From Heptranchias perlo (taxonomy: Eukaryota), in NCBI RefSeq assembly GCF_035084215.1, contig NC_090352.1:33108001-33172000 (forward strand): 64,000 nucleotides of DNA, given 5' to 3'. The notes below the pieces were generated by a model. The model was not told the DNA's origin. It made no database searches and was given only the letters and a program-made list of their open reading frames with translations. The position numbers were made by a program, and so were the translations under genes. Shown piece by piece: positions 7,269-58,500 of the stretch. Within the stretch, counting starts at the first letter, position 1, and each line of letters starts with the position of its first letter.

Positions 7269-7427
7269 GTTGTCAGCCAGCGTTTTCCCCAGAACAGTAT
7301 AGGTGCAGTGGGAAGTGCTATGTTCTTAAGATTCATCAATCCTGCTATAGTGTCTCCCTATGAAGCAGGAATCCTTGATAAGAAACCTCCACCTAGAATT
7401 GAACGGGGATTAAAGTTGATGTCAAAG
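7269..7427 (+). CDS. NF1: Neurofibromin exon (legacy exon 24), RasGAP domain with FLR motif
   Basis: ccctgcag|GTT...AAG|gtaaaa; 159 nt; VVSQRFPQNSIGAVGSAMFLRFINPAIVSPYEAGILDKKPPPRIERGLKLMSK. Confidence 0.98.
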
Positions 7428-10909: not shown

Positions 10910-11056
10910 GGACCATAAAGCTGTAGGCAGAAGACCATTTGACAAGATGGCTACCTTGTTAGCCTACCTAGGGCCTCCTGAGCACAAGCCTGTAGCTGAC
11001 ACTCATTGGTCCAGCCTCAACCTCACCAGCTCCAAGTTTGAGGAATTCATGACTAG
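10910..11056 (+). CDS. NF1: Neurofibromin exon (legacy exon 27a)
   Basis: ccatag|G GAC...ACT AG|gtaagc; 147 nt; DHKAVGRRPFDKMATLLAYLGPPEHKPVADTHWSSLNLTSSKFEEFMT(R). Confidence 0.98.
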
Positions 11057-12182: not shown

Positions 12183-12479
<297 letters not shown>

Positions 12480-27662: not shown

Positions 27663-29072
27663 CTAAACAACCAGTGGTGCCAGCATGGTGAGAATCATGA
27701 GGTCGAGGGTGATCCCTGTACACACATGTGCTTTTGAGGTTGTACCTTGTACTGTTACATTTTGGTCCATACTGTTTGTTGTTCCAGTGGTCAGATTGAT
27801 AGAAGCAGTCTGAATGGTACTTGAGATACTTCTCATTGCAACGTGAGAAGTAGTTGCATTGACGATACTTGGCTCGAAGGTTGACAGTGATACTGATCCG
27901 TTGGTCTGGCTGTTCATAGTTGCATTGGAACTGTTGACCATTGCAGTGGATTTAGTTGAAACAATGATGTCAGAGGTGAGTTCAGGAGCTGTAATGGACA
28001 TTGTGGATGATGGCCTCTTAGTTGTTTTGGCAGTAACACTCGGCATATTGCTTGAACTTTCAGCGCTGGACATTGTTTGATTGGAAATATTCCGAGTTAT
28101 TTGTGTTGCAGGTTTACGAAAGGAGCTTTGTGGTGGAGAATTCAAACTAGTATTGGTGACTAATTGTGAGAGGGGTGAAGTTCCAGTTTCTTGACTAGCT
28201 GAAGTGTGAAATGTACTTTTTTCATTCTGATGTCTGTGAGCTGAAATGTGACTTGGCAGTGTAATAGTACTTGGGTTAGAGGTGGAGGTTCTTTTGTGAC
28301 TGCATGTAGTTTCTTCAGTACATGGGCATCCATGCACAGTTGCTGTGGTCTCCCTTACCCATGTCAACAGATAGAATATATCCTGTTTAGAGTTGCATGC
28401 CCAAGGATTTGTGTTTAGTGTCATCAGTTGCAAACCAGTGAGTTCATTAAAAGTACCATTTGGAATAAATTTGAAATCGTTGTTGTTCAGATACAATTTC
28501 GAGAGACCGGCTTGAGGAAAAGTGCCTGGGAGAATTTGAAACAAGTTGTTGTGTGATAAGTCTAAAGTATTCAAGTTGTTGGGCATGTTGGTTGGGACTG
28601 TCGAGAATCTATTTCCACTGAAATTGAGGAAGTTGAGGCGAGTCAATGTGTTCTTAACGAAAAAAGTTCTTTCAATCATGTTGTTCGACACATCCAGTTT
28701 TTTCAGGTTCCATTGGGTGGCTATGTCATTCTTCACAAGTATTTTGATGCTATTGCTGGCAGCGTGGATTTCCCACAGCGCCACCGGCAAATGAGTAGGC
28801 ATGTTACTGAGCTGATTGCTGGATATGTCAAGGATCCTCATGTTGATGAAACGGGTCAGACTGTTGTCGAGATCTTTAATGCTGTTGTGGGAAATGTTCA
28901 GGGATATGACATTGACCTGGATGCTCTCTGGAAGTGCTGTCAAGCCTCTGCCTGAGCAGTTCACGAACCTGTCATTTTGTGTGCATGAACACTCTGAAGG
29001 GCAGGTGGCCGTGGTTGAAGGTAGGATGAACAAAAGGGCCAAGAGGCAACCAGATAACCTGAAATATCCCAT
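27663..29072 (-). CDS. OMG: Oligodendrocyte-myelin glycoprotein, 469 aa, single coding exon
   Basis: Acceptor cttccttatag|GACAACA ATG (exon starts 29079). Signal peptide MGYFRLSGCLLALLFILPSTTA, LRRNT CPSECSC...VNCSGRGLTALP, about 8 LRRs, LRRCT NPWAC...YLLTW, Ser/Thr-rich stalk and hydrophobic GPI-type C-terminus. Syntenic position inside NF1. Confidence 0.96.
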   Translation of the reverse strand: MGYFRLSGCLLALLFILPSTTATCPSECSCTQNDRFVNCSGRGLTALPESIQVNVISLNISHNSIKDLDNSLTRFINMRILDISSNQLSNMPTHLPVALWEIHAASNSIKILVKNDIATQWNLKKLDVSNNMIERTFFVKNTLTRLNFLNFSGNRFSTVPTNMPNNLNTLDLSHNNLFQILPGTFPQAGLSKLYLNNNDFKFIPNGTFNELTGLQLMTLNTNPWACNSKQDIFYLLTWVRETTATVHGCPCTEETTCSHKRTSTSNPSTITLPSHISAHRHQNEKSTFHTSASQETGTSPLSQLVTNTSLNSPPQSSFRKPATQITRNISNQTMSSAESSSNMPSVTAKTTKRPSSTMSITAPELTSDIIVSTKSTAMVNSSNATMNSQTNGSVSLSTFEPSIVNATTSHVAMRSISSTIQTASINLTTGTTNSMDQNVTVQGTTSKAHVCTGITLDLMILTMLAPLVV

Positions 29073-30188
29073 TGTTGTCCTATAAGGAAGATAATTGAAC
29101 ATTAGATTGTTTGCCCTCTGCAAAAAAAAATAACATTCAATCTGTCATTTTCTAAAATTGCAATATGAGAAGAACATGATCATTTTAAAACAAAATGTTA
29201 CCATGTAACATTCTCTGGATGAGCAGATGGATAAATCATCTGCACGCAGACTAGGATATGAGCATGGACTGCCCAAAGCAACAGGCTGCCTGTTTTCCTC
29301 TGACTACCAGCCCATCTCCCCTCTTTCCACCCCCCCCCCCCCCAAAACAAAATAAAATATACTGTCCAAGTACCAGACCTCAGCTCAGAGTCCCTTCAAT
29401 GAAATGCCTTGGCTGAGGAGATAATCGCATCGAGAATCTCGAGCACATGCCTTGCATTCTAATACTCCTGTGGCACAGTTCCAGTATGGTGCTAGTGCGT
29501 GCCTCATGCCTGGCTGTGTTTAAGAACTTAGATGTCTGAATGCTCCATTATTGTTGCCTGTGATGCAACAACTAGATGTAGAAATGTTCTGGAATGAATA
29601 AATCAATACACAATGTTGCAGCAAATGATATGTGCCAAATTGCTATGGTCGTGTTGTGATTGTGGTTTCTTACGATAGTCCTGCAATAAAACGTTCTTGA
29701 TAAATTACGGATTTTTTAAAAATCTAATTTTGATAGTGTTTTAATTTGTGTAACTTACTGCTCTATTTCTTATGAAACGTTATGGTTTTTTTAATTAAAC
29801 AATTATATCATCAAAAAAGCTGTACTGTGACATTCATAATGATTAAGAAAGGCTAGTTGTAATGATATATTCATTCTGCACTAAACTGCCAGCATAATGC
29901 AAAAATCAGTTCTATTTTGATAGCATCCCCCTTTCATACAAAAAAAATTGCTAAAAGGTTTAGTTCTGTGGGGAAAAAAATCCTGTATACGGTTATTTTA
30001 TTTTATCATTGATAGCAGAATTACAGCTGCTGTCTTGGGTTCTATATTTGCAAGCACTGCGTAAAAATCCATTCTAGCTGTTCTCGACAAATTCTTTTTT
30101 TCTCTGCAGTCTCCGGGAAATGGTGCAAGTGAGAAAAATATTACAAGTAAGAACAAAAAAAAACTTATAGACAACATAGTGGACTTAC

Positions 30189-41077: not shown

Positions 41078-42208
41078 TTAGACTTCCAGCTCAGAGAGCG
41101 GTGGTGGCAAATCGAAATCATTCACAAGATCCAGAAAATCCAATGGAGGAGGGGGAAAGTTTGTATTATTTGGACCTACGTCAGGAACCCCCTGAGGTGG
41201 GCCTCGAGCCTCTGTAACTGTTGCAGGCAGTGGATGTTGTGGGTCATTGTTATTCAGTGGAGCTTGTGCCTCAAGAGGAGGTGGTGGAAAATCTTGACTT
41301 TGTGTTCCATTTACAGTTTGTGTTTGACTTAAAGCTTGTGTTTCTTTTCCTGTTTCATTTTCCATTTTGACTTCAGCAGGCACTATGATCGTTCCTTCAA
41401 TCTCAGGTGAAGAACTGTTGATGATTCCTTCAGACTCTTGCACCTCCATGTTATATTGATCCAGTAAGGATTCACGTTTAGATTTTTTAGACAGAAAGGT
41501 GGTGAGTGAGGGGCGTTTCGCTGGAGCAGCATCGATATCGTTGTCCTCAACTACATGTACAGAATCTTCACCACTGGGGACTGGGCAAGTTCCTGCCCAT
41601 GTGAGGTCCTGTACAGGTTTCTTTTGTGAGCATCTTTTCCACACTGGAATGGCAACTATGATGAGCAACATTAACAACAATATCCCACCGATGATGCAAG
41701 CAACGATCGTGCTTGCAGCCAAGTCACGATCTTGGTACTGGGTCGTTGGCTTACTGGTCGTTGGCTTACTGGTCGTTGGCTTACTGGTCGTTGGCTTACT
41801 GGTCGTTGGCTTACTGGTCGTTGGCTTACTGGTCGTTGGCTTACTGGTCGTTAACTCAGTAGTGGTCTGTTTTATAGTTGCCACGTACGAAGTAGGTTTG
41901 GAGGTCGAACTTGGAATCGATTGTGCCTCAGATGAAAATTTCGATGTGAACTGTGAAGTAACAGAAGGTGTATTTGCCAAGATAGAAGTGTCACTGGGAA
42001 GATCACTTGAAGGCCCACTTATGGTGGTTGGCATACTTGTGATTATCCAGGAAGTTGCAGTGGCCAGGTTACTGGAGTCCTGAAGTGAAGATGATGCACT
42101 TGGATCTGTTACAATATCTGATCCTGTGGATGACTTGTAGTTCACTGTGGTTGTACCCCCAAGGCCCTTTGCCAGTAGTACCAGTATAGTCAAATGGATT
42201 GCTTCCAT
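41078..42208 (-). CDS. EVI2B: EVI2B (CD361), type I transmembrane mucin, 376 aa, single coding exon
   Basis: Signal peptide, Ser/Thr mucin ectodomain and TM IVACIIGGILLLMLLIIVAIPVW. The cytoplasmic KPVQDLTWAGTCP..GE resembles human KPVLNDQNWAGRSPFADGE, and the Pro-rich end LPPPLSELEV is also similar. Lies between OMG and EVI2A. Confidence 0.93.
   Translation of the reverse strand: MEAIHLTILVLLAKGLGGTTTVNYKSSTGSDIVTDPSASSSLQDSSNLATATSWIITSMPTTISGPSSDLPSDTSILANTPSVTSQFTSKFSSEAQSIPSSTSKPTSYVATIKQTTTELTTSKPTTSKPTTSKPTTSKPTTSKPTTSKPTTSKPTTQYQDRDLAASTIVACIIGGILLLMLLIIVAIPVWKRCSQKKPVQDLTWAGTCPVPSGEDSVHVVEDNDIDAAPAKRPSLTTFLSKKSKRESLLDQYNMEVQESEGIINSSSPEIEGTIIVPAEVKMENETGKETQALSQTQTVNGTQSQDFPPPPLEAQAPLNNNDPQHPLPATVTEARGPPQGVPDVGPNNTNFPPPPLDFLDLVNDFDLPPPLSELEV
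41741..41852 (-). repeat. Perfect coding minisatellite, 15 nt x 7.5, encoding (TTSKP)7
   Basis: GGTCGTTGGCTTACT repeated 7 times plus 7 nt, with no mismatches. Confidence 0.97.
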
Positions 42209-42859
42209 CTTTCCTAGCTTTGAAGAGACAGGCTTTAAAAACCAAGACCAGGTTGCTGACGACTATAAATTCCTGCAAGAATTAAGAATGAAATTTTTTT
42301 TTAGAATTTTGCTGTATTTCAAAAAATACTTTTATTGCTTTTGTTGGTGTGTGTAAAAGCAAAATGTGGGATGCACACACTTCAAATATCAAGTTAATTT
42401 TTAAAATTCATACCATAAAAAAGCAAGTTTAAAAGTTCCTGTTTTTGACTTGCTTGTGATAGTAAGTGTTGTTGAGCTGTTAGCTTCTCACTATTCCTAC
42501 CCTTGTTGCCCAGTATTATGCTTTCAAGGGGAAGACGAGGAGCAGGTTTTGCTCTGAATGATTTTATCTGCTTCAGTGATATCACGAATGGGAGTGGCAG
42601 ATTGTGAGCTGCGTTCCTCATTCATGATGCCAGTGGAGCTGAATGTTCTGATGTCCCAGCAGGAGCGGTGTTACCATAAGTCTCTGCTTTCAGCCTGCCT
42701 CTGACCAACTGTTCCTGAATATGGGACGGTGGCTGAGACACTGCTACCTGCGAACATGTTTTCTTGACATTTAGGGTTAACGAGCAAGTCAGTCAACTGT
42801 ACTTCCCCTTTGAGAGGTTATTCATCTTCTGTCACCAGAGGATAAATACTTCCTGGTAG

Positions 42860-43010
42860 GTCACTGATAACAGCAAGATAAATGGGTGCTTAATCTTTTT
42901 TTGCTCCTATTAGTTAAAGGAGGAATGTTGGCCAGGAGCGCTATCTACTCTTGGAACATGGCCATGGGACCTTTAAATGACCACTTCAACAGGCATTTAA
43001 TACTTCATAA
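42860..43010 (-). mobile_element. Degenerate Deu-domain SINE fragment
   Basis: GAATGTTGGCCAGGA...GCCATGGGACCTTTAAATGACCAC resembles the reverse complement of the recalled Deu-domain core. Confidence 0.5.
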
Positions 43011-45307
43011 TGCAGACTTTTACCAGTAGTGTAGAAAGGGCTTATTAAGGGGGAGCTTTGCTTCTGTTTTCTTTGAGTGGAGCATGCTAAGATTGAAAGT
43101 TGGCTCCACTGTTCTGTACCTGCAACTGAATGGAATGACAGCCCATTTTATTGAAATATATGTCTGATTTAAAGTGAAGATCTGAGCAGTAATCTTGCGT
43201 TGTTCAGCCATAAGTACCACAATGCAGCTCATTGAATACCGTGTAAAATACTCTTTTTTTTGGTACAAACGTACTTTTATATCTTACAGCATTTTTGCAC
43301 CTGTTCCGGGAGAATGACCTCAGTGTGTCATGCTCTCATTTTCACTCACTGCATTGAAGAGCCAGTCCCAATAGTGTTGCTGGAGTGTGGGACCAACTCC
43401 TCACTTTACTTCAATTAAACCACTGGCTGTAATCCAATGGTGTATTCCTAGACCTACATTTTCATGGGTCTGTGATGCTATCAGTTTGCTGTAGTTTGAC
43501 CTGTATGTACCATGGATTGTAACCAACCAAGGATGGACTGTACACCTGCAATCTGCCGTAGTTCTGTAATGTCAGCGCACATTAAAATTAATCCAGGTCC
43601 ATACCTGCAATAGTGCATCATTCACTATCTGAGTGCGACTGGACCAGTGAATGTGTTTGAGTGGTAATGCAGATCTGTGTTCCTGTACTCATCCTCAAGC
43701 AGGTTTGTGCAAACAGCTTCCAACCATCATTGTACATAATCTAAACATAAATAAATTCACGTTTGATGGACTGCTGATACTGTTTTTTTTGCAGTAAACT
43801 GGTGCTGCTGGCTAGTGATTCTGTAGCCTTAATTTTGACTCTCATGGTAAGGATCATCATGAGCCTGATCTGAAAGTTACTGCATCATTTTCAAAAGCAA
43901 TTGTGATCTTGGGACTGACTTTCTATCTGAACTTGAAGATGCATTTTTAAAAATGCTATTTAAACGATATGCATAGTAGTTCTATTATTTAGCTTCAGGA
44001 CCAGGTGAACTGGATATCAGAAAATAGTTTACTTTAACTGGGTCCATTGACACAAAATAAAATGGAACTCAATTTAAGCAGACTCAGAATTAATTGTCTC
44101 TGCTCTGAAGCAATGTCTCCTGTCATCCACCCTCCCTTCCTTTTGCAACGTGATGCTTAGCAGCAGCTCAAATGAGATTTGACACCTGTTTTACTTCCTG
44201 AACATATTTCCAATTTATGTTGAACAATGATTTTTAATTCTTGGTTTGTTTTGGTTGATTTTTCTCCCTTTTCCATTTGAGCAGCTTCTAAGCTTCTGCC
44301 AGTGCTGCAGTATGATTGGCTGGAAGAGATGACACAAATGTAGCCTAGGAAAAGTTGCCTTTTTTTTATTACCTTCTCTTCTGTTGGCGGGGGAAATGTC
44401 TATCATCATCACTGCCCTTTCCCAAGAGCTAAAATCGGGAAATCTCAGTGTAAGGGGGATCTCCCCATTACTTTTATAGTGCAATGAAAAGAATTGTTTT
44501 CCTTCAAGTAGAAATCCCCACGAAACATTCCTGTGTCAATCAGTACCACCTAAAAGCAGATTGACTGGCCAGCCATCTCCTCGCTCTTGTGAGCGGCATC
44601 TAACTTAGAATGACTGCCGCATTTGCCGACACAACCATCACTGTTCAAGAAAAAGCAAGAGAAGTGCTGTTGAGAGGTTTCAATGTGAGTGGCACTTCAT
44701 AAATGTATGTTAAAACGTCATTATTAATCAGTAGACTTGCAGTAAATTGCCAGTTGTCTATAACTACTCAGTACAAGTGTCACTGTGCATCAGGAACTAA
44801 CATTGTCCGTGCCATGAATTCGAAATTAAATTACCCCACAGAAGCACCCATATATCATCTATTAAAATAGATGCTGTCGTGTGACTTCAAGTAAGCCACC
44901 TAATCTCTGGATTCAGATGCCAAGTTGTGAATTGGTGCTGTTTTGGTTTATGATGCCATCTGAACCCCCAGATTCGAATACTGACTTGCAATCAGATATC
45001 CATTGTTAGCTATATATTTTGGCGTGCATGCTCATACACACGCTAACTGACACGTACTCATACACGTACACATACCATGAGATAATGGAGTATTTCACTC
45101 CATTTACCAATACTTGTTTTAATTGCGGAGCAACCATACATGACACTTGAGAGATTGTCATTTTGAAATCACAAACTAAATCAAGTTAATCGTTGGGTTT
45201 CTTGACTGATCACATTGAACTATTTTCTGCGTGATTTTATTAAGAAATTAATTTATCAATGCATTTAGGTCCAAAAAAATTGCACTTGTGCTTTTGAAAA
45301 CACTTAC

Positions 45308-45380
45308 CACTGATGGAGCTTGGACTTGTGCAGTTGAGGTCGAAGGCTGCTTCTGTTTCTGCAATTGTTGTGCATTACAC
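45308..45380 (-). other. EVI2B: Candidate non-coding exon 1 of EVI2B (5' end approximate)
   Basis: Donor GTG|GTAAGTG at 45308/45307 with ETS/PU-box motifs immediately upstream. Confidence 0.5.
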
Positions 45381-45382
45381 AC

Positions 45383-45404
45383 TAAGAGGAAAAAGTTCCT
45401 CTTA
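45383..45404. promoter_or_regulatory. Inverted double PU-box (PU.1/ETS) at the putative EVI2B promoter
   Basis: TAAGAGGAA-AAAG-TTCCTCTTA; a further GGGAAGT lies at about 45519. Confidence 0.45.
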
Positions 45405-48364
45405 AAGTTAATAACTTGGCATTTATTGTCATACTTGGTAATGAAGCAAATATTCTAAACCCATCTGTGTATGCGCGGCGTTGTGCTGTCACTGGTTAAT
45501 TTTGAGGTTTTCGAAAAAGGGAAGTCAGAACAGTTGTCCGGATATGAAGAAATGAGTTAGAAACCAAGTGTTCTGAGCACTGGCATTTTTACAAAAAATT
45601 GAAGTTTGGAACTAAATCTGCTGAAAATTAAACTGTGAATGTCAAGTTTGCAATGTGATGTAATTTGCTGTTTACTTCTGATACAGTTAGAGAGCTCCTA
45701 TTTATTATAAACTTGTTTTGTGGCATTTTATTTTGAACCTGCCATCCTGGTAAGTCAAGGTTAAACTGTGTGTAATTACACAATTTGTTCTGGTGCAATT
45801 TCGTTCCCAGTACGATTCCTCTGAAATCCTGTGCCTGACTCTCCTGTCTCTTCCCCACCCCAGGGTTTCATTGTGTTTTTGTTGTATAATGCAAGTACAG
45901 TCATTGGGAGTTTTAACCTTCGAAAATAAGTTGTTGGAGAAGCAGCGTGGGCTACTCTCATTTTAGAAAGACTAATTTCAGCCCCTTGCACAATCTCTCA
46001 CTTGAACTCAGCTAGCTGGGTCAGGAAGTTGGCTCTTGGCTAAGCCTCTTGCAGCAATTACATTCGGTGATGAGGTGGTGACTGAGAGGAAATGACCAGC
46101 TGAACCCCACTGAGGAGTGTGCATACCTTTGTTTTCGCCTTCCCCTGTATTGCCCCAAATTGATACTGCCGTTCAAAGCCAGGTTGCTTTATGCAGCTCA
46201 TTAAAGACATTTCTACTTCTGCTTAAAAAGTTGTTACAATTTGGGGAGGAACAACCTCTCTGTTCTATTCTCCCCTCTGCAATATTTCTATTGAGCACTG
46301 GTCTCTACAGTGTGAAATATGGGAGTGCAATTGACACCTGAATGCCCTCTGAAGTTACTTGCATTTGTGAGTCGATCCTAGGGATCAAGAAGTTTATACT
46401 TGGGATTGCAGTTGTTGATAGAACTACTGCAGCGTGCTGCACTCCTCCAATATAAAAGCAATTCTACATTACTCCACCAAATAGGGTTTAACTTGCGTTG
46501 AGGATGAAGTTTGTCCACCTGGGTAAGTGTATGAATTCATATTTTCTTAAAATTTAAGACACAACATCCTCAGTAGATGGCCTAATGTTTATCAGACATT
46601 CAGCTTTTTTGTTTTACCCACGCCCAGTAAAACATTTCAGCACTCTCCACACACCCCCCCCCCCCCCCTGCAAATGGATCTCCCCCATGCCACCCATTAT
46701 CCACAGCCAGGGGGACGGTGATGCTCAAATTGCTTGGGGTGAGAGCAGGGATGATGCTTCCCTCCATCACCTCCCCGTTCACTGTAGAAATAGACCAGCT
46801 TGTACTGGACAAATTCCCTGTAGGGATATGCCTAAGGATTGGCTTGGTGCTGTGAGGGATCACTGGTGTGACACCCGTGTTTGGCTACTCGAACATGCTA
46901 TGCTATGGGTAATATTTTGTGCCCTGTTATGGGCGTTCACGGTCACAGATACTTTGTTACAACAGTTAATTATTTGGTCCCAAGAATGCTATTGCATTGA
47001 GGGTACCGCATATGTTTTTAGCTGCTTAAGAGAAGATGGAAATAAATAGAAGATGGCCCAAACACTTACAACTCGTACACGCACCAAATGTGTTTCATTC
47101 ATTTTCTCGACCAAAGGTAGCTTCCATACGTGAGCATGACCTCCACGTGGAACTTAACATCAGGAAAGGTGTACACTTTTAGCAGAGGGGAGAAAAACAT
47201 TTAATTTTTAAAAAAATGTCACCTCCTTTTCTTGAAATAAATTTTGATGCTAGCCATCTTGTCCTGATAGCTGAGTACAGGAGTGTCTCCTGTGATGAAG
47301 TTCCTAAGCAAAATCCGTCATCTCTTTCAACTGAAGCTCAAAGGACACAAGTGTTGAAACAGAGCAATGAATTTTCAGCCCCCCCCCCCCCCCCCAACCC
47401 AGCAGAAATGGGGTGATGACACAAAAAAAGTGGTAGGCAATGACCTCCTGTCCCATTGCCGTGGCATTATTCCCCCAGGCCTATGGCTGGGTGGCCCACT
47501 GAATCAGTCAGTCGATCCAATTAAAATGCTAATCGGGGTGCTACAATTACATAGGACCCCGCGTGCCATCTTTGGACTGAACTGGGCTGAACATCCGTGT
47601 CCGTAGCTCCTTCTGTAAAGCATGCTGGGATGTTTTGTGTGAAACGCACTATGTAAATAGAAGTTGTATTTATTCCCATATCTCTGTAAATGCCACTCAG
47701 GTTTTGTGTGCCAAAATTGGGCCTATGACTTGCATTATTGATTTTTCTGCTTCTATTTTTCTTCCTTCTCTCAGCATTTCATCTTCGCTTGATGACTCCT
47801 GTAAATTCTTTGTGTGGGCAGTTACAGGTATGGAGCAATGCCTGCCACTCTGATGCAAGTTGTTAGTACACCAGTGTTTGCCAACAGATCATCTGGTGCC
47901 ATTTGTATGCTGTTTTTAATGTAATCATTTCCATAAGTAATGATTTCAATAAATCAGGAAAATACATGACTGGAATCATTGCTTTGTACACTTACTTTTC
48001 AATATGGCATTTGTTTACTTTATGCTTTGTGTGATAAATTCAGTTTGTCAAGTATAGATTAAGGATGAACTAGCATTTAAACTGAATGCAGCCTTTGTCA
48101 TTTATCTTTGGGCGGGTGTGCAGTTCTCACCTTGTGCAAATAAATAAGTTTTTGTGAATACAGATGTAACCCTGGTTACTATTTAACACACAGTTGCCAT
48201 CTATACAAAAATTGCCATTACTACATTATGAATTACTGCATCAACTGTTCAAAACGTTTAAGAAAAGGAGCCTTTGAATGAAATCTGATACATGATTTCA
48301 GATTTCGTGTACCAAAGCTTGATCGCAGTAAAATATCATGCACGCTTGCTCACCCACGTGTGTG

Positions 48365-48710
48365 CGTGCTCAGTGGCTTAATGTACCTGGTATTGTTCTG
48401 AGCCGTGCAGATCAGCGAGGTCCCAGATTCGGAGTCTGGGAGAGAGAACTGCAGCTGATCTCAGTAGTGGCGACAAAGCAATTGGCCTCCATGTTCTCGG
48501 GCTAGAAGGCACATTTTAAGCAGGGTTTCTACCCACTGAACTCTACTGAAAAGTGTTCATTTATTCATGATAACAGATCAGGTTTGGCTGATATGATTGC
48601 ACTGTTTGATGTTTAACTCTTCAATATACTGTTCTTAAAGGATGCTTGGGTGAAGTTCCAGAAGGCTGCAAGTACCCAAGGAATTGTGTTCCAGTATAAG
48701 CTGCTGCCTT
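48365..48710 (+). mobile_element. Shark SINE-like repeat copy
   Basis: GCTCAGTGG...GAGGTCCCAGATTCG...GCTGATCTCAG...CAATTGGCCTCC...GATCAGGTTTGGCTG, as at 7510. Confidence 0.55.
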
Positions 48711-48924
48711 TTTAAAAAAAATGTTAATGATGAGAAAATTCCATTCAATCCACCAAAGCTCATTGTTCTAGTTCTAACTGTACCAGCCCAGGATTTTGAA
48801 TGCTGCTGATACCTATATCTCTGCTACCTTGCCCAGCAAATTTTACCAGACATTTATCACCTGTTGCATGAAAAAGTTTCTCCTTGTATCTGTTCTAAAT
48901 TTATTTTGCACTAGTTCACATTTG

Positions 48925-50190
48925 AGAGAGTCAACATGGATTTATAAAGGGTAGGTCATGTCTAACAAACTTAATTGATTTTTTTGAGGAAGTAACTGAA
49001 GTAGTAGACAAGGGAATGTCTATGGATGTAGTTTATATGGACCTTTAAAAGGCATTCGATAAGGTTCCATATAAACTGTTAACTAAAATTAAAGCTCACG
49101 GAATTGAAGGCAAATTATTGACCTGGTTAGGAAATTGGTTAGGTGGTAGAAGAGAGAGTAGGGATAATGGGTATGTACTCAAATTGGAAGGAAGTGATTA
49201 GTGGTGTCCCACAAGGATCTGTGCTTGGGCCTCAACTATTCACTATTTATTGTCATATTTATTGATTATTCAATTCACTGTTAAGTCATATTTATTGACT
49301 TAGATAACACAATACAGAGCCATTTATCCAAGTTTGTTGATGACACACAAATTGGTGGCATAGTAAGTGATGTAGACGGGAGCATAAAATTACGAAGAGA
49401 CATCGATAGATTAAGTGCGCAAAACCGTAGCAGATGGATTTCAACGCAAGCAAGTGTGAGGTCATCTATTTTGAATCAAAAAAGGATAGATCAGTGTATT
49501 TTTTAAATGGTGAAAACTAGGAACAGTGGAGGCCCAAAGAGATTTAGGGGTCCATGTACACAGATCACGAAAATGTAGTGGTCCGGTACAAAAAATAATC
49601 AAAAAAGGTTAATGGAATGTTAGCCTTTATAACATATAGGTGTAACATAATATAAAGTGGAGGAAGTTTTGTGACAGCTATACAAAGCCCTGATTGGACC
49701 ACATCTGGACCGCACTTTAGAAAGGATATATTGGCCTTGAAAGGAGTGCAACACAGATTTATCAGGGCTCCAAGGGTTATATTATGAAGCAAGATTACAT
49801 AAACTAGGCTTGTCTTCCCTGGACTATAGAAGGTTAGGGGGTGATTTGATTCAGGTATTTAGGATTTTGAAAGTAATTGTTAGGGTAGATAGAGAGAAAC
49901 CTTTTCTGGTGGTGGGGGAGTCTAGGACAAAGGGACATAGCCTTAAAATCAGAGCCAGGCCATTCAGGAGAGAAGTTCAGAAACACTTGACACAAAGTGG
50001 AGTAAAAGTATGCAACACTCTCACACAAAAATGAGTAGATGCTAGCTCAATTAATAAATTTAATTCTGAGATTGATAGATTTTTGCTCGCCAAGGGTATT
50101 AAGGAATATGGAGTTAGGATACAGATCAGCTGTGATCTCATTGAATGACAGAACAGGCTCAATGGGCTGAATGGCCTACTCCTGTTCCTA
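48925..50190 (+). mobile_element. CR1 LINE RT/3' fragment
   Basis: QHGFIKGRSCLTNL, DVVYMDL*KAFDKVP, SGVPQGSVLGP, KFVDDT and GDLIQVFRIL; tail AATGGCCTACTCCTGTTCCTA. Confidence 0.92.
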
Positions 50191-51009
50191 CAACCTGCAA
50201 TCCTATTCTGTCTTATTTTAAAATAATATGCAGGGTTCGTCTTAACCCAGCTATTTAATATTTCATATGCATGTAAAAGCCTCTCCTTAACTGTCCTTTC
50301 TCTGTGTATGGATTGAGCTTTTATAAGCTTTCCACATAGTGAATATGGTGGGGGGGAAACATGTTGATAGCTGCATGAACTGCTTCAGTGCTGAGGTGAA
50401 CTTCAGCCAGGAAGGCAACATCTTCCGGCAAGTCACCAAGTGCTCTTCCACACCTCCTAGTGGCTGGTTCAAGAGCAGCATTAATGCATGTCTCCGAGCA
50501 GAGTGTCTGCGCTCTCATCCCTCCCCCAAAAAAAACTCGGTCAGGGATCAAGAACGTAAGAAGTGGGGGGGTTGCAAGAAAAGGGAATGATTAAAATATT
50601 AAAATGAAGTACCACTTGTGTTTTAAACTCTTCTGGAAAAGGGAAAAATGGAAGTGTTACCATTTGGTAGGTCAATCAGCATGGGTGGAGAGCACAGACA
50701 AGTTCATGTTTCAGGAGTGGACCTTTCATCAGAACTGGAAGATAGAGCATTTAAAAAGGAGTCTTTACTGCTTTCACTGTTTTTGTTTGTGTTCCAGCAT
50801 CTGTAGTTTTATTTGCCATTCATTAGAGTAATTTATTAGACAGGAAACTCCTGGTGAGTGCAACCCACTATCTGGTGGTAATCTGAATAATCCTATACTC
50901 CACACTCCATTTGAGATGATACGTTTGAATACAGATAGACTTTTTAGCCCATATTGGTCTGGAAAGCTTCTTCCAAGCACCTGCCAACCAATCATATAGC
51001 AAAGTACTG

Positions 51010-51245
51010 GAGGTACTTGCATTTATATAGTGTCTTTAACGTAGTTAAATGTCCCAAGGTGCTTCACAGGAGCGTTATCAAACAAAATTTGACACCGAGC
51101 CCCATGAGATATTAGACGGGACCAAAAGCTTGGTCGGAGAGGTAGGTTTTAATCGTCCAGAAGGAGAGAGAGAGGTGGAAAGGAATCCCAGAGCTCAAGG
51201 CTTAGGCAGCTAAAGGCGCGGGCGCCAATGGTGAAGCCATGAAAA
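51010..51245 (-). mobile_element. L2-type LINE 3' end
   Basis: CTTGCATTTATATAGTGTCTTTAACGTAG...CAAACAAAATTTGACACCGAGCC. Confidence 0.85.
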
Positions 51246-54200
51246 TGGCTCCCTTCCTTTCTCTAGGAAAGCACTTGTTTCTTCTCCCTTCCCCTCCCCA
51301 CCTCCGTTAACTGTATAAAGCTGGACCAACACTAACAATGCCATGACATTTTATATTTCTAATAATTCCTTCAGTTTGCATCATATATGTGAAAAGATCG
51401 GGCAGTACAATCACAATGTTAGGGTGAACTCTAGCATTTATTTACACAAGCCAGTCATGTCATTAACAATTTTAAGAATGCAAAATCAACAGATTGAAAT
51501 GTGGCCAGGAACACAAGTGAAAGTATACAAATCATTCCAGAACTTGTGCAGTTGTCTCGCTTCAAAGATATTTAATTGGCACAAAACTGAACAGCTTTTT
51601 TACTAACCCTAACCTGCTTTACTGATTAACAAAATGTATCAACCAGTCCAACTGTTGGGTTACTTAATCCATTTAATTGGTAAATAGGTGTAGCCTTTAG
51701 ATTTGGCTCGTTAATCTGATCCGAAAACCCTACTTTCTTGATTTTGCTTGATTAAAAAGACAAACAAATTTGATTCTCCAATCGAAGTATTTGTTGCACT
51801 AAATTGACTTTTCTAGACTTCCTGGCCGCGCCTATTATTTCATTTTGAGCACCAACCTATATTGTATGCGATGTGCATGCCTCTGAGATGTTTCATTTTT
51901 GTTCGCCACAAACTTCAATCCAAATTATTGAAAGACTCTCAAAAAGGACTTTTTTAATTGGCCACCTTTTCAATCTGACACTCCGTAGCTGTTGGTGACA
52001 CTTTGCATTGCGATTAGCTCCACCTTTGGGCTACTCCCAAGTGTTACTCCTGTTTTCACCAAGTATTTTATGATCCCTTGACTATTTTTGTCAAGCACAT
52101 CAGACAGTTCTGTGGAGCTTGAAATAAAGACAGGAAATGCTGTCAATACACAGCAGGTTCACCAGCATTTGTAGAGATGGGTTAATGAGGACCACTTAGA
52201 TTAATATAGCATCTTCAATGTCGAAGAACATCCCGCAGTGCTTCAGAGAGGCACAAGGACAACATTTTGGGTTTTGAACTAGAGCCTACGACCAAAACCT
52301 GATTAAGCACCTTTGTTAAAGGTTATTAATTTGTGCTACAGTTACACAGGCATTAATTAGTTGCCTTACAGTACCCCATTCCCCCCCCCCCCCTTTCAGA
52401 CGCTGGCAGACCTACTGTGCATTTCTAGCATGTTGTGTTTTTATTTATTTTCCAGCAATTGCAATTTTTTCATCTTTTTTCTTTGCATTGCATTGTTTCA
52501 AACCATTTAAAAGTTTAACTTTTCTCATTGAGTTTGCAACTTTATTTCTCTTATTTTTGTCATAGTTTTTCCTTGTATATTAAATGTTACTGTTGCTTAC
52601 TGCACGTACATTGCAAGCAAGATAAGTTAGCAGTTTCACTAAAGTATAAATTTGAAAATAAACGGTTACATTTGAACTTCCACAACGATCCTGAGAGATG
52701 AATTACCTGAGCTGTCAACCCCTCAGTTGTAACTTGAAGTGCTGTGAACAGGTGTATATTCAAGGTATTCTCTATTGAGGTTGACAGGAATAAGTAACTT
52801 AGTTTTTGTTTGAAATTGGTATCTTGGCAGCCTACAATTGGGAATAATGGTTTAGAATGCACATTATTTGAGGCTATGCTAAGTCTCACTTGTCTTGAAC
52901 TAAAGGAAATTCTTCCTTGCACAAAGAGTGGAAGTGAAAAATCTGGAATCTTTTAAGGAACAATTGGATGCCAGAATGATGGGACTTCAGGATCCTTTTG
53001 GGTGGATTAACTGAGATGGCCAAATGGATTTCCTCATCTGTTACTGTCTTGTGAAAGTGTTCAGTCTCACTAGCTTTCTAAGTGACAATCCAATTTGTCT
53101 TGGTATGAAACTTTGAGATTTCTGTAGTGGACAAAATGAAGGCAAGAAACTCATCAGTTTTACTATTTTTTTTTTAAAAAGGGCTCCCAAAACATGTGCA
53201 CAGCAAATATATCACTGAAATTGGTTTTAGAAATTTGGCATCTCATGAGTTGGAGGAAAATCAGGACAGTTTTTTTTAAAGCCTGCAAATGGTGGAAACC
53301 TGATACAAAAACAGAAAATGATGGACATATACAGGTCAGCACCTGAGGAGAGAAAAAGTTCACATTTCAGGTATTGCCAGCTTTCTTCAACCAGTTTGTT
53401 GGTCATTCAACCCATCAACTCCCCTCTCTCTGATTGGAGTACTGGTTTATTTCCCCTTTTTTCTTTTCCCCAGCCTTACTAAAATGATTGAATTTTCAGT
53501 CTGATGCAGGATATACATCCACAAGGGTAATTTTTCTCTTTACAGATGCTGACTGGCCTGTTCTGTATTTCCAGCATTTTCTGGTTTTGTTGGAGAAATT
53601 CAGTGGTATTTGAAACCTTTGCTGAGTGGTGATGCTCTTTAAACCCCATCGTGGAGTCCGATATCATATAGTATTCAGTGTTAGTAGGAATGTTTGACCC
53701 AGCACAGCTGTAGTTGGATATATAACTTCTTCCACAATTCTCTTGCCCTTTGGGACACCATTTAACGTGATGGTCCCTTTAGTATTTGAAACTTCCACCA
53801 CAGCGAACAAGTTGCCTGAACCAATCATGTCCTTTCCCTCTAAAATCTTGAAAACATCAATTGGGTCACCCATGATGCGTGTTGGCATTGAGATCCTGTT
53901 ACTTAGGGCATCATTTGTCAAGGCCTCTGAACAACTTGCGGAAGTGATAGTTAGTATCTTATTCCCCCCCTCAATTTTAATTCAACACTTCTGGTGTGAC
54001 AATTAAGGCTGCAGTCGAGTACAGAAAAGTTTGTAAAACTTCTTTTTGGGAATCTACTACGTGGAAACATTGTTGTATTTGTTTATATCCTGCTGCCTTT
54101 GGTAATGAGTTAGGTTGAAGGATTTGATGAGACAAACGTTGGGTTGGTTAGTTCTCAACAACCATTTACTACATGAATTGTACAGCTGATAGTTTAGTGA

Positions 54201-54407
54201 GTACTTAGCAAGTCAGTGTTGTATATTTGAGTCGGATGGGCTCCAACACTGACTAATTGCATTCATCTCTGAACAATAATTTACGTTGCAGATTCCTGGA
54301 TTGTGTGTTTGGGCTTAGTGGAGAAAAAAGCTGTTAGAATTGACAGTGCTGGTGCTATGGTTGTGGATTTCTAGGTGTTCAAGATGAGGATTGAGACAAG
54401 TGGGTTA

Positions 54408-54413
54408 TTTATT
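54408..54413 (-). terminator. EVI2A: Candidate polyA signal of EVI2A
   Basis: AATAAA on the minus strand about 300 nt after the stop. Confidence 0.45.
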
Positions 54414-54710
54414 AAATGAACACATGGATGATTCCAAACAAATCTGTTGAAAATTGTTAACTGGGTCACCAAGGTATTTACATTTTACCTTGTCTGCTCT
54501 TCCCTTTCTCCAAAGAATTTGTGTGGTTTAAAAATACAGGTATAAAAAGCACTTGTGTTTTACTGAGAATTTCTTTTGTTTGAGTATTCTGATTTGTGGC
54601 AAATTAGATATATTGACTTTCACAACAGCACAAAAAAACCTGATCAGTCGACTGAGATCAGTCCGATTTACTGCCTTTTCTGTGTCAGCTGGACTTAATG
54701 GTTTCCTTTC

Positions 54711-55496
54711 TCATTCTTTTGATGGCTTGGCCTCTTCCTTTGCCTTCAGAGGTATGACTTCTGCCAGCATTACGTTGGTTTCCGCTGACTCGCCTGGCAG
54801 TTGGCTGGAACCAGTAGGCCAGAGACTGGATGTCTTAACAAAGTCAGAATTGCCTCTCATTCGCCGCTTTTTCAGGCTGACCTTGAGATCTGACACCTGA
54901 TAGGCCAAGGCAGCTGTTGATACCAACAAGATAGTGCACAGAATTATTAATATGCCTATTATGATTAAATAAATCAAAAGTTCTCTGCATTTTGTGCTTT
55001 GACTTGAAAGAGAATGCTCAGTAACAATTTCTTTGGTAGTTGTCAAAAAAGGAGTTGTACCATAAGCAGTGTATTCATTTCTCGCGGTTTTCGAAAGAGG
55101 ATTTGCACCATTAGCAACATATTCTTTTTTAGTGGTCACCGGAAAAAGACCCGCACCCTCAGTAACGTATTCTTCCTTGGTCGTTACAAGATGATCTGGA
55201 CCCTCAGTAACGTATTCTTCCTCGGTTGTTACAAGATGATCTGGACCCTCAGTAACGTATTCCTTGGTCGTTACAAGATGATCTGGACCCTCAGTAACGT
55301 ATTCTTTCTCTGTCATTACAAGAAGATCTGGACCGTCAGTAACGTATTCTTCCTCGGTTGTTACAAGATCATCTGGACCCTCAGTAACGTATTCTTCCTC
55401 GGTGGTTGTTTGAAGAGTGTTGGCCTTGATCTGAGCAGACAAAAGGGCCAATATTCCAGCTGCCACCAAGAAAAGTTTTTTTATATATCGATTCAT
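54711..55496 (-). CDS. EVI2A: EVI2A, type I transmembrane glycoprotein, 261 aa, single coding exon
   Basis: Acceptor cattgacag|GTGAAGTCCCAAGAACA ATG (exon starts 55513). Signal peptide ends ..QIKA. TM LIYLIIIGILIILCTILLVSTAALAY and tail RGNSDFVKTSSLWP match recalled human LICLIIIAVLFLICTFLFLSTVVLAN...RSNGDFLASGLWP. Confidence 0.94.
   Translation of the reverse strand: MNRYIKKLFLVAAGILALLSAQIKANTLQTTTEEEYVTEGPDDLVTTEEEYVTDGPDLLVMTEKEYVTEGPDHLVTTKEYVTEGPDHLVTTEEEYVTEGPDHLVTTKEEYVTEGAGLFPVTTKKEYVANGANPLSKTARNEYTAYGTTPFLTTTKEIVTEHSLSSQSTKCRELLIYLIIIGILIILCTILLVSTAALAYQVSDLKVSLKKRRMRGNSDFVKTSSLWPTGSSQLPGESAETNVMLAEVIPLKAKEEAKPSKE
55156..55410 (-). repeat. Coding tandem repeat, 45-nt unit (one 42 nt), 6 copies of TT(E/K)EEYVTEGPDHLV, plus 3 degenerate copies to about 55018
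   Basis: CC(C/G)TCAGTAACGTATTC recurs at 55156, 55201, 55246, 55288, 55333 and 55378. Confidence 0.95.
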
Positions 55497-56964
55497 TGTT
55501 CTTGGGACTTCACCTGTCAATGGATCATTTAAAAAAAAGTTGTGATTTGTAATTTTGTACATACGTATGTTTCATACTGAAGTGAGAGAACAGCAAAGAA
55601 ATCTGTTCAAACTTGAACCCGGTCAGACTCCAGTTTTTTCCTCCAATTACTCTCCATCTCTGCTGAATATGCAACTCACACTAGGATCAGTAAAATACAA
55701 ACACATTTTATACCTATTAAGACTTTTTGCTTCAGTCCTGTTCCATTTGTTCTGACCCTGTGTCTCCATGTCACATTCTGCAGTTCTATGAAATGAACGG
55801 GCTTTATACTTTTTGACCGTCTGAAGGGACTCCATCCATTGGGTATGAAGAACCTCAACTTTCACATTGCTGAGAACTGGAAGGGACAATTTTTTTTTTC
55901 TTGCCCATCTGTTACTCCCGCTCCAAGATTTTGAATCCTTGCTGTGGTGCAGGTGCCCTGTCGAAGTGGCTGCTATTTGTATGTGAGCCTACCTGCTTTG
56001 AGCAGGGGTTCATTGGATAGCATTGTAAATCTGGACAGGATTCTGCCTGCCTTCCTGGGCTCCAAGGCCAAATTAGTCATCCTCACTAAGATCAGCTACT
56101 CTTGGCTCACCAGAATCCATGACCTTCCTGGTTGATCTGACCCAGTAACTTGCTGGATGAATGCACCGAGCCACTGAAGAGCCTTAAGGGACAACTCTGT
56201 AATCTTTTAATGGTTGGAATGGTCTCAGTTCTCATACCTAACCACAGGCTAATACGATGAGTGGTTGAACCATATTTTGCTCTTGACATAATACTGAACG
56301 CTGTTTCATTTTCCACGGACAGCGCTTTTTGGGGAAAATTTAAAATCCAAAATCTTCAGCTTGTCCCTAACGGCTTTAAGAAATTCCTTTCATTAAAAAA
56401 ATAATTAACACTTTCAGTTTAGAAAGTTGTGACATCCCGTTAAGAGCAGTTTCAGTTTGGATGGCTTTAAAGTTTCTTCAGTCTGGAAGAATCATTTCAT
56501 TTTTCCTTTTCCAATTTCCCTCCTCCTTTGCTTCAGGCAATGACTCTTGCTGGGATATGTTTTACACACACCATTGTCTGGGACATTGCCCAAGCACCCA
56601 TTCTTGTGTGGCAATAGTGAGTGTCAGTGGGTTATTTGACCATGCATCACAACCGTGTCCAATGTTATCACCCAGCGCTCGCTTGCCAGCTGCGGTCAAT
56701 AGATAGCATGGGATTTACAACATGCAAATGACACTTGGCCTGACCCTGTGCTCCACACAAGAAGTCATCCCTCGCTGATCCCATATTTGTTGATCTGCCT
56801 TTCCTTCAACCACCTATCGAACCTATTTTCACAAGTTAACATAATGGCTGCTTCAATCACTAGTATATTCCATAGCCTCACAACCTAGTGTTTTTTTTTT
56901 AAATAATTCTCCTGCTCTCAGTTCTAAATCTCTTACAGTTAATCTTGAATCCATGTTTCCTCAT

Positions 56965-58135
56965 TCTAGACCTGTCTCCAGCCTTTGACATGGTTGACCA
57001 CATCATCTTCCTTCAATGCCTCTCCTCCATCATCCAGCGAGGTGGGACTGTGTTTGCCTGGTTACATTCTTATCTATCCAATCATAGCCAGAGAATCACC
57101 TGCAATGGCTTCTCTTCCCGCTTCTGCATAGTTACCTCTGGAGTCGCCCAAGGATCTATCCTTGGCCCTCTTCTATCTCTCATCTACATGCTGTCCATTG
57201 GTGACATCGTCTGAAAACACAACATGGGGTTCCACATGTACGCTGACAACATCAGCTCTACTTCACCACCTCTCTTGACCCCTCCACTGTCTCTCATTTG
57301 TCACACTGTTTGATCGACATCCAGTACTGGATGAGCAAAAATTTCCTCCAACTAAATATTGGGAAGACCAAAGCCATTGTCTTCGGTCCCCAAAACAAAC
57401 TCCGTTCCCTTGCCACCGACTCCATCCCTCTCTCTGCCCACTGTCTGAAGCTGAACCAGACCGTTCGCAACCTTGGCGTCCTATTTGACCCGGAGATAAG
57501 CTTCCGACCACATATCTGCTCTGTCACCAAGACCACCTCTGTAACATCGTGCGCCGCTGAAACCCTTATCCATGTCTTTGTTACCTCTAGACTCGACTAT
57601 CCAATGCTCTCCTGGCTGGCCTCCCATCAGCCACTCTCCATAAATTTGAGCTCATCCAAAACTCTGCCCATATCCTAACTCGTACCAAGTCCATTCACCC
57701 ATCACCCCTGTGCTCGCTGACGTGCGTTGGCTCCTGGTCCAGGAATGCCTCAATTTTAAAATTCTCAACCTTGTTTACAAATCCCTCCATGACCTCACCC
57801 CTCTCTATGTCTGTAATCTACTCCAGTCCTACAACCCTCCGAGATCTCTGTGCTTCTCCAATTCTTGCCTCTTGCACATCCCCGATTTTAATCGCTCCAC
57901 CATTGGCGGCTGTGCCTTCAGCTGCCTAGGCCCTAAGCTCTGGAATTTGCTCCTTAAAACTCTCCACCTCTCTCCTCCTTTTAAGACACTCCTTAAAACC
58001 TACCTCTTTGACCAATCTTTTCGTCACTTGTCCTGATACCTCTGTGTGGCTTGGTGTCAAATTTTGTTTGATTGCTCCTGTGAAGCGACTTGGGACGTTT
58101 TACTACATTAATGGCGTTAAATAAATGCAAGTTGA
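56965..58135 (+). mobile_element. L2-type LINE RT/3' fragment
   Basis: LDLSPAFDMVDH, GVAQGSILGPLL, MYAD, WMSKNFLQLNIGKT, VRNLGVLFD and FVTSRLDY; L2 tail. Confidence 0.92.
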
Positions 58136-58159
58136 TATTGTGCCCTGCCCTGCCATGAT

Positions 58160-58500
58160 TTTAAACACCTCTATCAAATAACCCCGTAATCTTCTCTAAC
58201 AAAATCAGCCCCATTTTTGAAGGCTTTTTTTGTATTTGTGTTTCCTCATACCAGAACAATCTGTGCTGCATCCTCTCTATTGCCTCAACATTCTTCATAT
58301 GGTGTGGAGCCCAAAACTGCACACAGTACTTCAACTGTAGTTTTACTGAAGATTTATATAGATTCACTACAACATCTCGACTTTTATATTCTATACCTCA
58401 TGTCATAAAACCCTGTGTTCCATTAGCTTTTTTTAATAGCTTATTCACTTGAGATGCTGCTTTGAATGTCTTGTAAACTTGAACCCTCATCCCTCTGCTC
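58160..58500 (-). mobile_element. Old CR1 fragment
   Basis: ORF 58161..58367: MNLYKSSVKLQLKYCVQFWAPH. Confidence 0.8.

Follow-up and report, generated by a model that had tools for sequence, protein, structure and literature searches.

EVI2A and EVI2B of the shark Heptranchias perlo: an acidic tyrosine-repeat ectodomain, an anchor-removing exitron and a possible kinship with CD43, C16orf54 and PSGL-1

The EVI2B and EVI2A genes

We analyzed a stretch of 64,000 nt from Heptranchias perlo (positions 33,108,001–33,172,000 of contig NC_090352.1, assembly GCF_035084215.1), hereafter the window. In this window, NF1 exons on the plus strand precede three open reading frames (ORFs) on the minus strand, which belong to an OMG-type gene, EVI2B and EVI2A. 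The gene at 41078–42208 is the shark orthologue of EVI2B and the gene at 54711–55496 that of EVI2A; both genes are already known as such. The facts directly shown here for the first time are that the EVI2A ectodomain of elasmobranchs is built from acidic-tyrosine repeats and that an exitron, an in-frame intron within the coding exon, removes the membrane anchor of EVI2A in H. perlo. EVI2A is located upstream of EVI2B and lies antisense to NF1, past the GAP/Sec14 exons. An earlier note on this DNA had described a nested EVI2A–EVI2B pair; the minus-strand position behind NF1 exons and the ends of both ORFs agree with that description, whereas nesting within a single NF1 intron, together with the OMG-type gene, is what we infer from NF1 exons located on the upstream side alone. 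In the human locus, all three genes lie within one NF1 intron.

As expected for a member of its family, EVI2B has a single coding exon to which a non-coding 5′ exon is spliced, and its precomputed annotation carries PF27913, a model named EVI2B. Its ectodomain comprises 144 aa, of which 48% are serine or threonine (S/T). A word-index homologue search with EVI2B kept 13 of 183 candidates, all from cartilaginous fish. Across 13 cartilaginous-fish proteins the ectodomain is variable, and the tail retains the WAGxxP motif, the block K231–L249 and a proline-rich end. Among 90 aligned EVI2B tails, WAG was found in 88 and WAG..P in 87, and the two block serines, S243 and S247 (i, i+4), which are a weakly specific feature, in 66 and 65, respectively. 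Like known EVI2B (CD361; PF27913), the shark gene stands behind NF1 exons between OMG and EVI2A, has a 5′ non-coding exon and one coding exon, and encodes a mucin ectodomain, the WAGxxP tail motif and a proline-rich C-terminus. Unlike the tetrapod proteins, in which they are partly lost, the shark tail retains RPSLTTF and S-K-R-x-S-L-L blocks. The pentamer repeat of the ectodomain is species-specific and is a recent expansion; in its present long form it is not common to most of 12 relatives.

Three further observations concern EVI2B orthologues in general. Many of them (P0021–P0101) carry misleading database names, including mucin-17, PERK10, rickA and LIM kinase, and those of ray-finned fish have an additional conserved TFG motif after the serine block. 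A metagenome scan gave a single fish match for EVI2B, on a 5-kb contig (L001, 2314–3582, plus strand) without neighbouring genes; as this EVI2B is of the ray-finned-fish type, the contig is likely host DNA. Metagenome scans for EVI2A gave no match.

EVI2A matched Pfam PF05399 at 61.1 bits against a cut-off of 25, and EVI2A was the sole consistent Pfam family for EVI2A proteins. The protein has a signal peptide, a 145-aa ectodomain with nine tyrosines, a helix and a short tail. Its helix and proximal tail match the family model (at 56–61 bits) and its position is the same as that of other members, whereas its ectodomain is a tandem acidic-tyrosine repeat to which the Pfam model does not match here. 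Homologous repeats with 5–9 tyrosines are carried by the EVI2A proteins of two catsharks and one electric ray, the only three relatives recovered (word-index searches kept 1 of 13 and 4 of 13 candidates, cartilaginous fish only), and the acidic-tyrosine array is therefore an elasmobranch trait. The repeat is predicted to carry multivalent sulfotyrosine and O-glycan sites. The earlier note had called both proteins single-coding-exon type I mucins with repeat ectodomains. This holds for EVI2B, and tandem repeats occur in both proteins, but EVI2A departs from it because of the exitron and because its ectodomain contains only 24% S/T together with 21% acidic residues (D/E), so that the word "mucin" fits loosely. 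It is better described as a protein of acidic tyrosine repeats than as a mucin in the classic sense.

An in-frame ATG at 55562 (minus strand) would lengthen the EVI2A ORF by 22 codons, but it precedes a likely splice acceptor at 55514–55515, and 55496 is thus the likely start. Among the RNA-contig joints listed, there was neither an EVI2A–EVI2B read-through joint nor one to an EVI2A 5′ exon. Descent of EVI2A and EVI2B from each other by tandem duplication was considered and rejected (hhalign probability of 13% over 8 columns; cross-matches between hidden Markov models (HMMs) of at most 8.3 bits).

The EVI2A exitron and its surroundings

The exitron of EVI2A takes out 49 residues, among them the two cysteines and the greater part of the membrane helix. 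It was spliced out in contigs of three of the four sequencing runs, and depth arithmetic left no contig cover over it in any of the four (depth of the exitron bin versus that expected from the flanking contigs alone: 35.7/35.7, 95.9/96.1, 51.2/51.2 and 12.1/12), although the four runs represent one sample and contigs can drop a rarer unspliced form. The runs are not on record as RNA, but their joints are GT–AG, which indicates that they contain spliced RNA. The spliced product is identical to the NCBI protein model of H. perlo (P0017). The single membrane helix is present in the genomic frame, but every RNA contig spanning it has it spliced out: the best 19-residue hydropathy is 3.32 in the unspliced and 0.38 in the spliced protein. 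Secretion is predicted for the latter, as it keeps the signal peptide and the repeats but no hydrophobic helix. A threonine codon and the alanine codon after it together supply the acceptor AG. All three relatives have isoleucine at that place; since every isoleucine codon starts with A, an acceptor at the same position is impossible in them. The exitron is a clean natural case in which one codon difference accompanies a switch from a membrane to a soluble form. Its removal of the helix sets EVI2A of H. perlo apart from the known EVI2A family.

The features of the window are collected in Table 1. The name OMG for the leucine-rich repeat (LRR) gene is a putative one, assigned from its position. 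Outside the gene cluster, positions 89–1826 (plus strand) hold a frameshifted retroelement remnant with a reverse transcriptase match in one frame (PF00078, E 1e-9); its downstream frame, which has no Pfam match, resembles a Penelope-type endonuclease. Repeats at 49800–51200 and 56500–58500 reach RNA-contig depths in the thousands, and one of them lies directly beyond the end of the contigs of the EVI2A 3′ untranslated region (UTR).

Table 1. Positions of genes and features in the window
Feature	Position	Strand	Evidence
NF1 exon, GAP domain	7269..7427	+	neurofibromin match, E 6e-31
Likely NF1 exon	10910..11056	+	AG/GT ends; no Pfam match
NF1 exon, last one located before the three minus-strand genes	12368..12478	+	neurofibromin match, E 3e-18
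OMG-type gene: LRRNT, LRRs, S/T-rich stalk	27663..29102	-	Pfam and layout
Coding exon of EVI2B (376 aa), with signal peptide, S/T-rich mucin ectodomain, a single membrane helix and a tail of 186 aa	41078..42208	-	ORF and PF27913
EVI2B tail block K231–L249, nearly invariant in 13 cartilaginous-fish proteins	41462..41518	-	alignment
EVI2B tail motif WAGxxP	41582..41599	-	most conserved feature of the family
EVI2B 15-nt tandem repeat, KPTTS x7.7, 99% identical	41736..41852	-	tandem repeat detection
EVI2B 5′-UTR intron (GTAAGT..TTGCAG)	42273..45307	-	RNA-contig joint in 3 of 4 runs
Non-coding 5′ exon of EVI2B (minimum extent)	45308..45481	-	RNA contigs
EVI2A 3′ UTR, about 3.2 kb, AATAAA at 51442	51423..54710	-	3.5–3.6 kb contigs in 3 runs
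Coding region of EVI2A; unspliced membrane form of 261 aa, spliced and predicted secreted form of 212 aa	54711..55496	-	ORF, Pfam, RNA contigs
EVI2A membrane helix, about residues 173–199	54900..54980	-	hydropathy 3.3; Pfam EVI2A
EVI2A exitron, 147-nt in-frame GT..AG intron within the coding exon	54914..55060	-	RNA-contig joint in runs X2, X3 and X4
EVI2A 45-nt repeat x5.7, 88% (15-residue unit): acidic tyrosine, then T[DE]xP[DE], five copies	55155..55407	-	tandem repeat detection

Comparison with C16orf54, PSGL-1 and CD43

When the helix and tail of EVI2A were compared with the ESM Atlas, ranks 1 and 3 were taken by DUF4689/C16orf54 clusters (scores of 0.80 and 0.78; 158 and 149 shared features) and rank 2 by an EVI2A cluster (0.80; 159 shared features), all of them below the tool's bar of 0.9 and to be read as a lead only. 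C16orf54, also known as SAIL (DUF4689, PF15755), is a 224-aa single-pass leukocyte surface protein (PMC4476018). While it is the nearest Atlas cluster to the EVI2A helix and tail, its ectodomain is only 31 aa long and no Pfam model matches across the two families. We consider common descent of EVI2A and C16orf54 somewhat more likely than not.

The comparison with PSGL-1 (SELPLG) concerns the ectodomain. The selectin site of PSGL-1 consists of one to three tyrosines in acidic context before the threonine in T[DE]PP[DE] (PMC2174952). EVI2A shares with PSGL-1 acidic tyrosines before T[DE]xP[DE], a repeat-built ectodomain and, in H. perlo, a cysteine directly before the helix. The differences are that the motif is the repeat unit itself in EVI2A, whereas PSGL-1 has a single N-terminal site; that the distance from tyrosine to threonine is 2 in EVI2A; that the strict PP never occurs; that the cysteine is missing from all three relatives; and that the ectodomain spans about 145 aa against a mucin stalk of 250–280 aa in PSGL-1. 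A relaxed pattern, [DE]Y..T[DE]xP[DE], which was chosen after the sequence had been seen, occurs five times in EVI2A of the window and three times in the ray protein. It arose by shuffling in under about 1% of cases: 17 and 29 of 5000 for whole ectodomains, 161 and 167 of 20000 for single repeat units. Homology of EVI2A and PSGL-1 is, in our estimate, slightly favoured over its absence.

For EVI2B, a profile was built from ten shark and ray helix-and-tail stretches and searched over 1.84 billion proteins (E up to 0.001). It gave 83 matches, ranging from sharks to mammals, the lowest at 35.5 bits. Thirty matched clusters, spread across the tree and including four long branches, were looked up: 21 were named EVI2B, eight had generic names and one was unnamed. 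Two more of the 83 already had names, and 51 were never named. One large ray-finned clade in the tree was considered as a candidate for fish CD43 and discarded, as, of ten clusters looked up, five were named EVI2B and none CD43. In the ESM Atlas, the EVI2B helix and tail retrieved opalin, neurexin/syndecan, MUC1, TMEM154 and EVI2B at 0.85–0.86, and a Pfam scan of 82 EVI2B proteins placed generic helix families on top (ErbB1 TM, TMEM154 and RIFIN). In PDB sequence searches with EVI2B, broad EVI2B, EVI2A and repeat queries, the matches were likewise confined to generic helices or repeats; peptides of CD43 or PSGL-1 were not among them.

The link between EVI2B and CD43 (leukosialin, SPN) is drawn mainly in the tail. 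The CD43 tail contains a short W-A-G-P followed by a short R-P-x-L-T-T-F, in the same order as in shark EVI2B; its spacers are longer, which would lower the score of an HMM match. It is also closer to shark EVI2B than to tetrapod EVI2B, the consensus of which has drifted at the serine block. Mainly because of these motifs, homology of EVI2B and CD43 appears probable to us, more so than either of the kinships proposed for EVI2A. The CD43 tail is phosphorylated at S72 and S76, the latter by PKC-theta (PMC3069020), and its residues 62–78 form a second moesin-binding region in vitro (PMC2141743). When S247 of shark EVI2B is set to S76 of CD43, S243 falls on S72 and the invariant block spans 60–78, suggesting that the two serine pairs may be equivalent. 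Both proteins are type I S/T-rich mucins that have basic residues next to the membrane, a basic block in the middle of the tail with two serines four positions from each other, and a proline-rich tail stretch (PMC3943294). However, the serine block of EVI2B is about 19 residues closer to the membrane and its tail is longer (186 versus 123 aa). NCBI names one of 12 cartilaginous-fish EVI2B orthologues "leukosialin-like".

Other results weigh against these kinships. In the Atlas, one third of shuffled proteins receive a first match of 0.8, and no SELPLG-named row appeared there for the helix and tail of EVI2A. Pfam matches to DUF4689 (PF15755) and TMEM119 were found in none of four EVI2A proteins, in a scan whose HMMER filters drop weak matches and whose local copy was not verified to hold PF15755. 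The strict PSGL-1 motif was likewise present in none of the four; tyrosine with the relaxed motif was missing from two (the catsharks, which have a looser Y-x-T-x-x-P), and a cysteine before the helix, the counterpart of the PSGL-1 dimer cysteine, occurred only in the protein of the window. For EVI2B, the search with shark-seeded profiles proposed in the earlier note yielded no cluster named CD43, leukosialin or TMEM119 among the 30 looked up of its 83 matches, the Atlas rows for its helix and tail included neither CD43 nor TMEM119, and TMEM119 was outside the best 25 Pfam families for the 82 EVI2B proteins, so that at most two of them match it. CD43 itself was compared directly as two 11-residue fragments printed in a paper. 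These were near chance against EVI2B profiles, with 714 and 768 of 5000 shuffles reaching their score, and in four further tests 2125, 1977, 75 and 1558 of 3000 did so; the fragments thus did no better than shuffled sequence in all but one of the six tests, the exception being that against tetrapods (75 of 3000). Moreover, the best placement of the fragments in the 5000-shuffle test differed from the S72/S76 register. EVI2B of the window also lacks the juxtamembrane KRR for ERM binding and has KRC..KK instead (the consensus of ray-finned fish is KKRK). Finally, two other orthologues bear mucin names, so S/T composition may be what lies behind "leukosialin-like" as well.

The earlier note had called EVI2A PSGL-1-like and EVI2B CD43-like. 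The Atlas ranks of C16orf54, the acidic-tyrosine repeat, the serine spacing and the database name are leads towards pairing EVI2A with C16orf54 and PSGL-1 and EVI2B with CD43, none of which is statistically significant. The family links are accordingly plausible but unproven; as a hypothesis they are good, and the leads for them are several but weak.

Origin and possible function

We give about an even chance to the reading that EVI2B and EVI2A are ancient duplicates of CD43 and of C16orf54 and PSGL-1, respectively, with TMEM119 not being the sister of EVI2B. The chromosomal setting is relevant here. QPRT lies between SPN and C16orf54, which are on opposite strands and face each other, so that SPN–C16orf54 is not a clean tandem cassette. 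PTPRCAP lies beside CORO1B on 11q13, a fourth locus that the earlier note left out. Coronin-1A to 1D (CORO6) arose by 2R, the two vertebrate genome duplications (PMC3203266); a published listing for chromosome 12 has TMEM119, SELPLG, CORO1C and SSH1 together (PMC13409549); and SPN, QPRT, C16orf54, CORO1A and TAOK2 belong to 16p11.2 (PMC3484866). The duplication was probably that of the coronin-1 chromosome in the vertebrate genome doublings. A search of the openly accessible literature found no paper linking EVI2A or EVI2B with CD43, PSGL-1, C16orf54 or TMEM119, and the passages of a primate study of genes co-deleted with NF1 made no such link (PMC6896060).

The alternative that survives best, although we regard it as unlikely, is that these proteins share no ancestor: unrelated single-pass leukocyte glycoproteins would have in common kinase sites, basic residues beside the membrane and ectodomains of low complexity, and their position on paralogous chromosomes would be due to chance. 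Every test of sequence statistics was negative, generic helix families head the Pfam lists, and acidic-tyrosine sites are generally known to evolve repeatedly. The ERM-binding tails of CD43, CD44 and ICAM-2 have, moreover, no sequence similarity (PMC2141743). However, C16orf54 clusters hold two of the top three Atlas ranks for EVI2A, and the tests were weak and run without the partner sequences. The order of the EVI2B tail motifs also argues against independent origins.

Somewhat less probable still is that the genes are homologous but that SPN and C16orf54 arose later, when a segment with the EVI2 pair was copied in tetrapods or in mammals. This would fit the lack of a second EVI2B-like lineage in any named cartilaginous or ray-finned fish cluster, whereas the CD43 tail resembles shark EVI2B more than the drifted tetrapod EVI2B. 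SPN and C16orf54 were described in 2012 as limited to mammals, no teleost homologue having been found (PMC3484866), which counts for such a late copy and against ancient duplication; that search, however, used ordinary homology, which misses such proteins.

The earlier note had proposed three sister two-gene cassettes in which TMEM119 is the counterpart of EVI2B and CD43. We find this version of the scheme improbable: the shared chromosome of SELPLG, TMEM119, CORO1C and SSH1, the 2R origin of the coronin-1 genes and the same-strand tandem order of SELPLG and TMEM119 speak for it, but TMEM119 appeared neither among the looked-up profile matches nor in the Atlas rows or the best-ranking Pfam families of EVI2B. 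TMEM119 also looks less like CD43 than like PTPRCAP and PSGL-1, and SPN and C16orf54 have QPRT between them. That TMEM119 is the sister of EVI2B at all, in whatever arrangement, is unlikely.

If EVI2B and EVI2A are indeed ancient duplicates of CD43 and of C16orf54 and PSGL-1, EVI2B may act as an O-glycosylated, extended anti-adhesive mucin, the tail of which would be linked to the cell cortex, with a basophilic kinase acting as its switch at the S-K-R-x-S-L-L block, by analogy with S72/S76 of CD43. EVI2A of sharks and rays could present selectins or chemokines with a multivalent sulfotyrosine/O-glycan ligand, in which a site that PSGL-1 has once recurs about five times. With the anchor taken away by the exitron, as in the RNA contigs, the main EVI2A product in H. 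perlo would be a secreted decoy. The most extended form of this proposal is tentative and in our view doubtful: EVI2A, PSGL-1 and C16orf54 (perhaps with PTPRCAP) would be one hitherto unrecognized family and EVI2B and CD43 another, forming a linked adhesion/anti-adhesion pair that predates the genome doublings, and the shark EVI2A would have a multivalent sulfotyrosine ectodomain binding selectins or chemokines that a newly gained intron turned into a secreted decoy.

Little mechanism has been assigned to EVI2A, EVI2B and C16orf54, all of them surface proteins of leukocytes. The first two are co-deleted in NF1 microdeletions (PMC6896060), and the third is an antibody–drug target in leukaemia (PMC4476018). 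Kinship with CD43 and PSGL-1, if true, would give them testable properties: binding to ERM proteins and to selectins or chemokines, sulfation of tyrosines, a kinase switch and a location in the uropod. The rolling/anti-adhesion toolkit would then go back to early vertebrates, and two genes once called mammal-limited would be accounted for.

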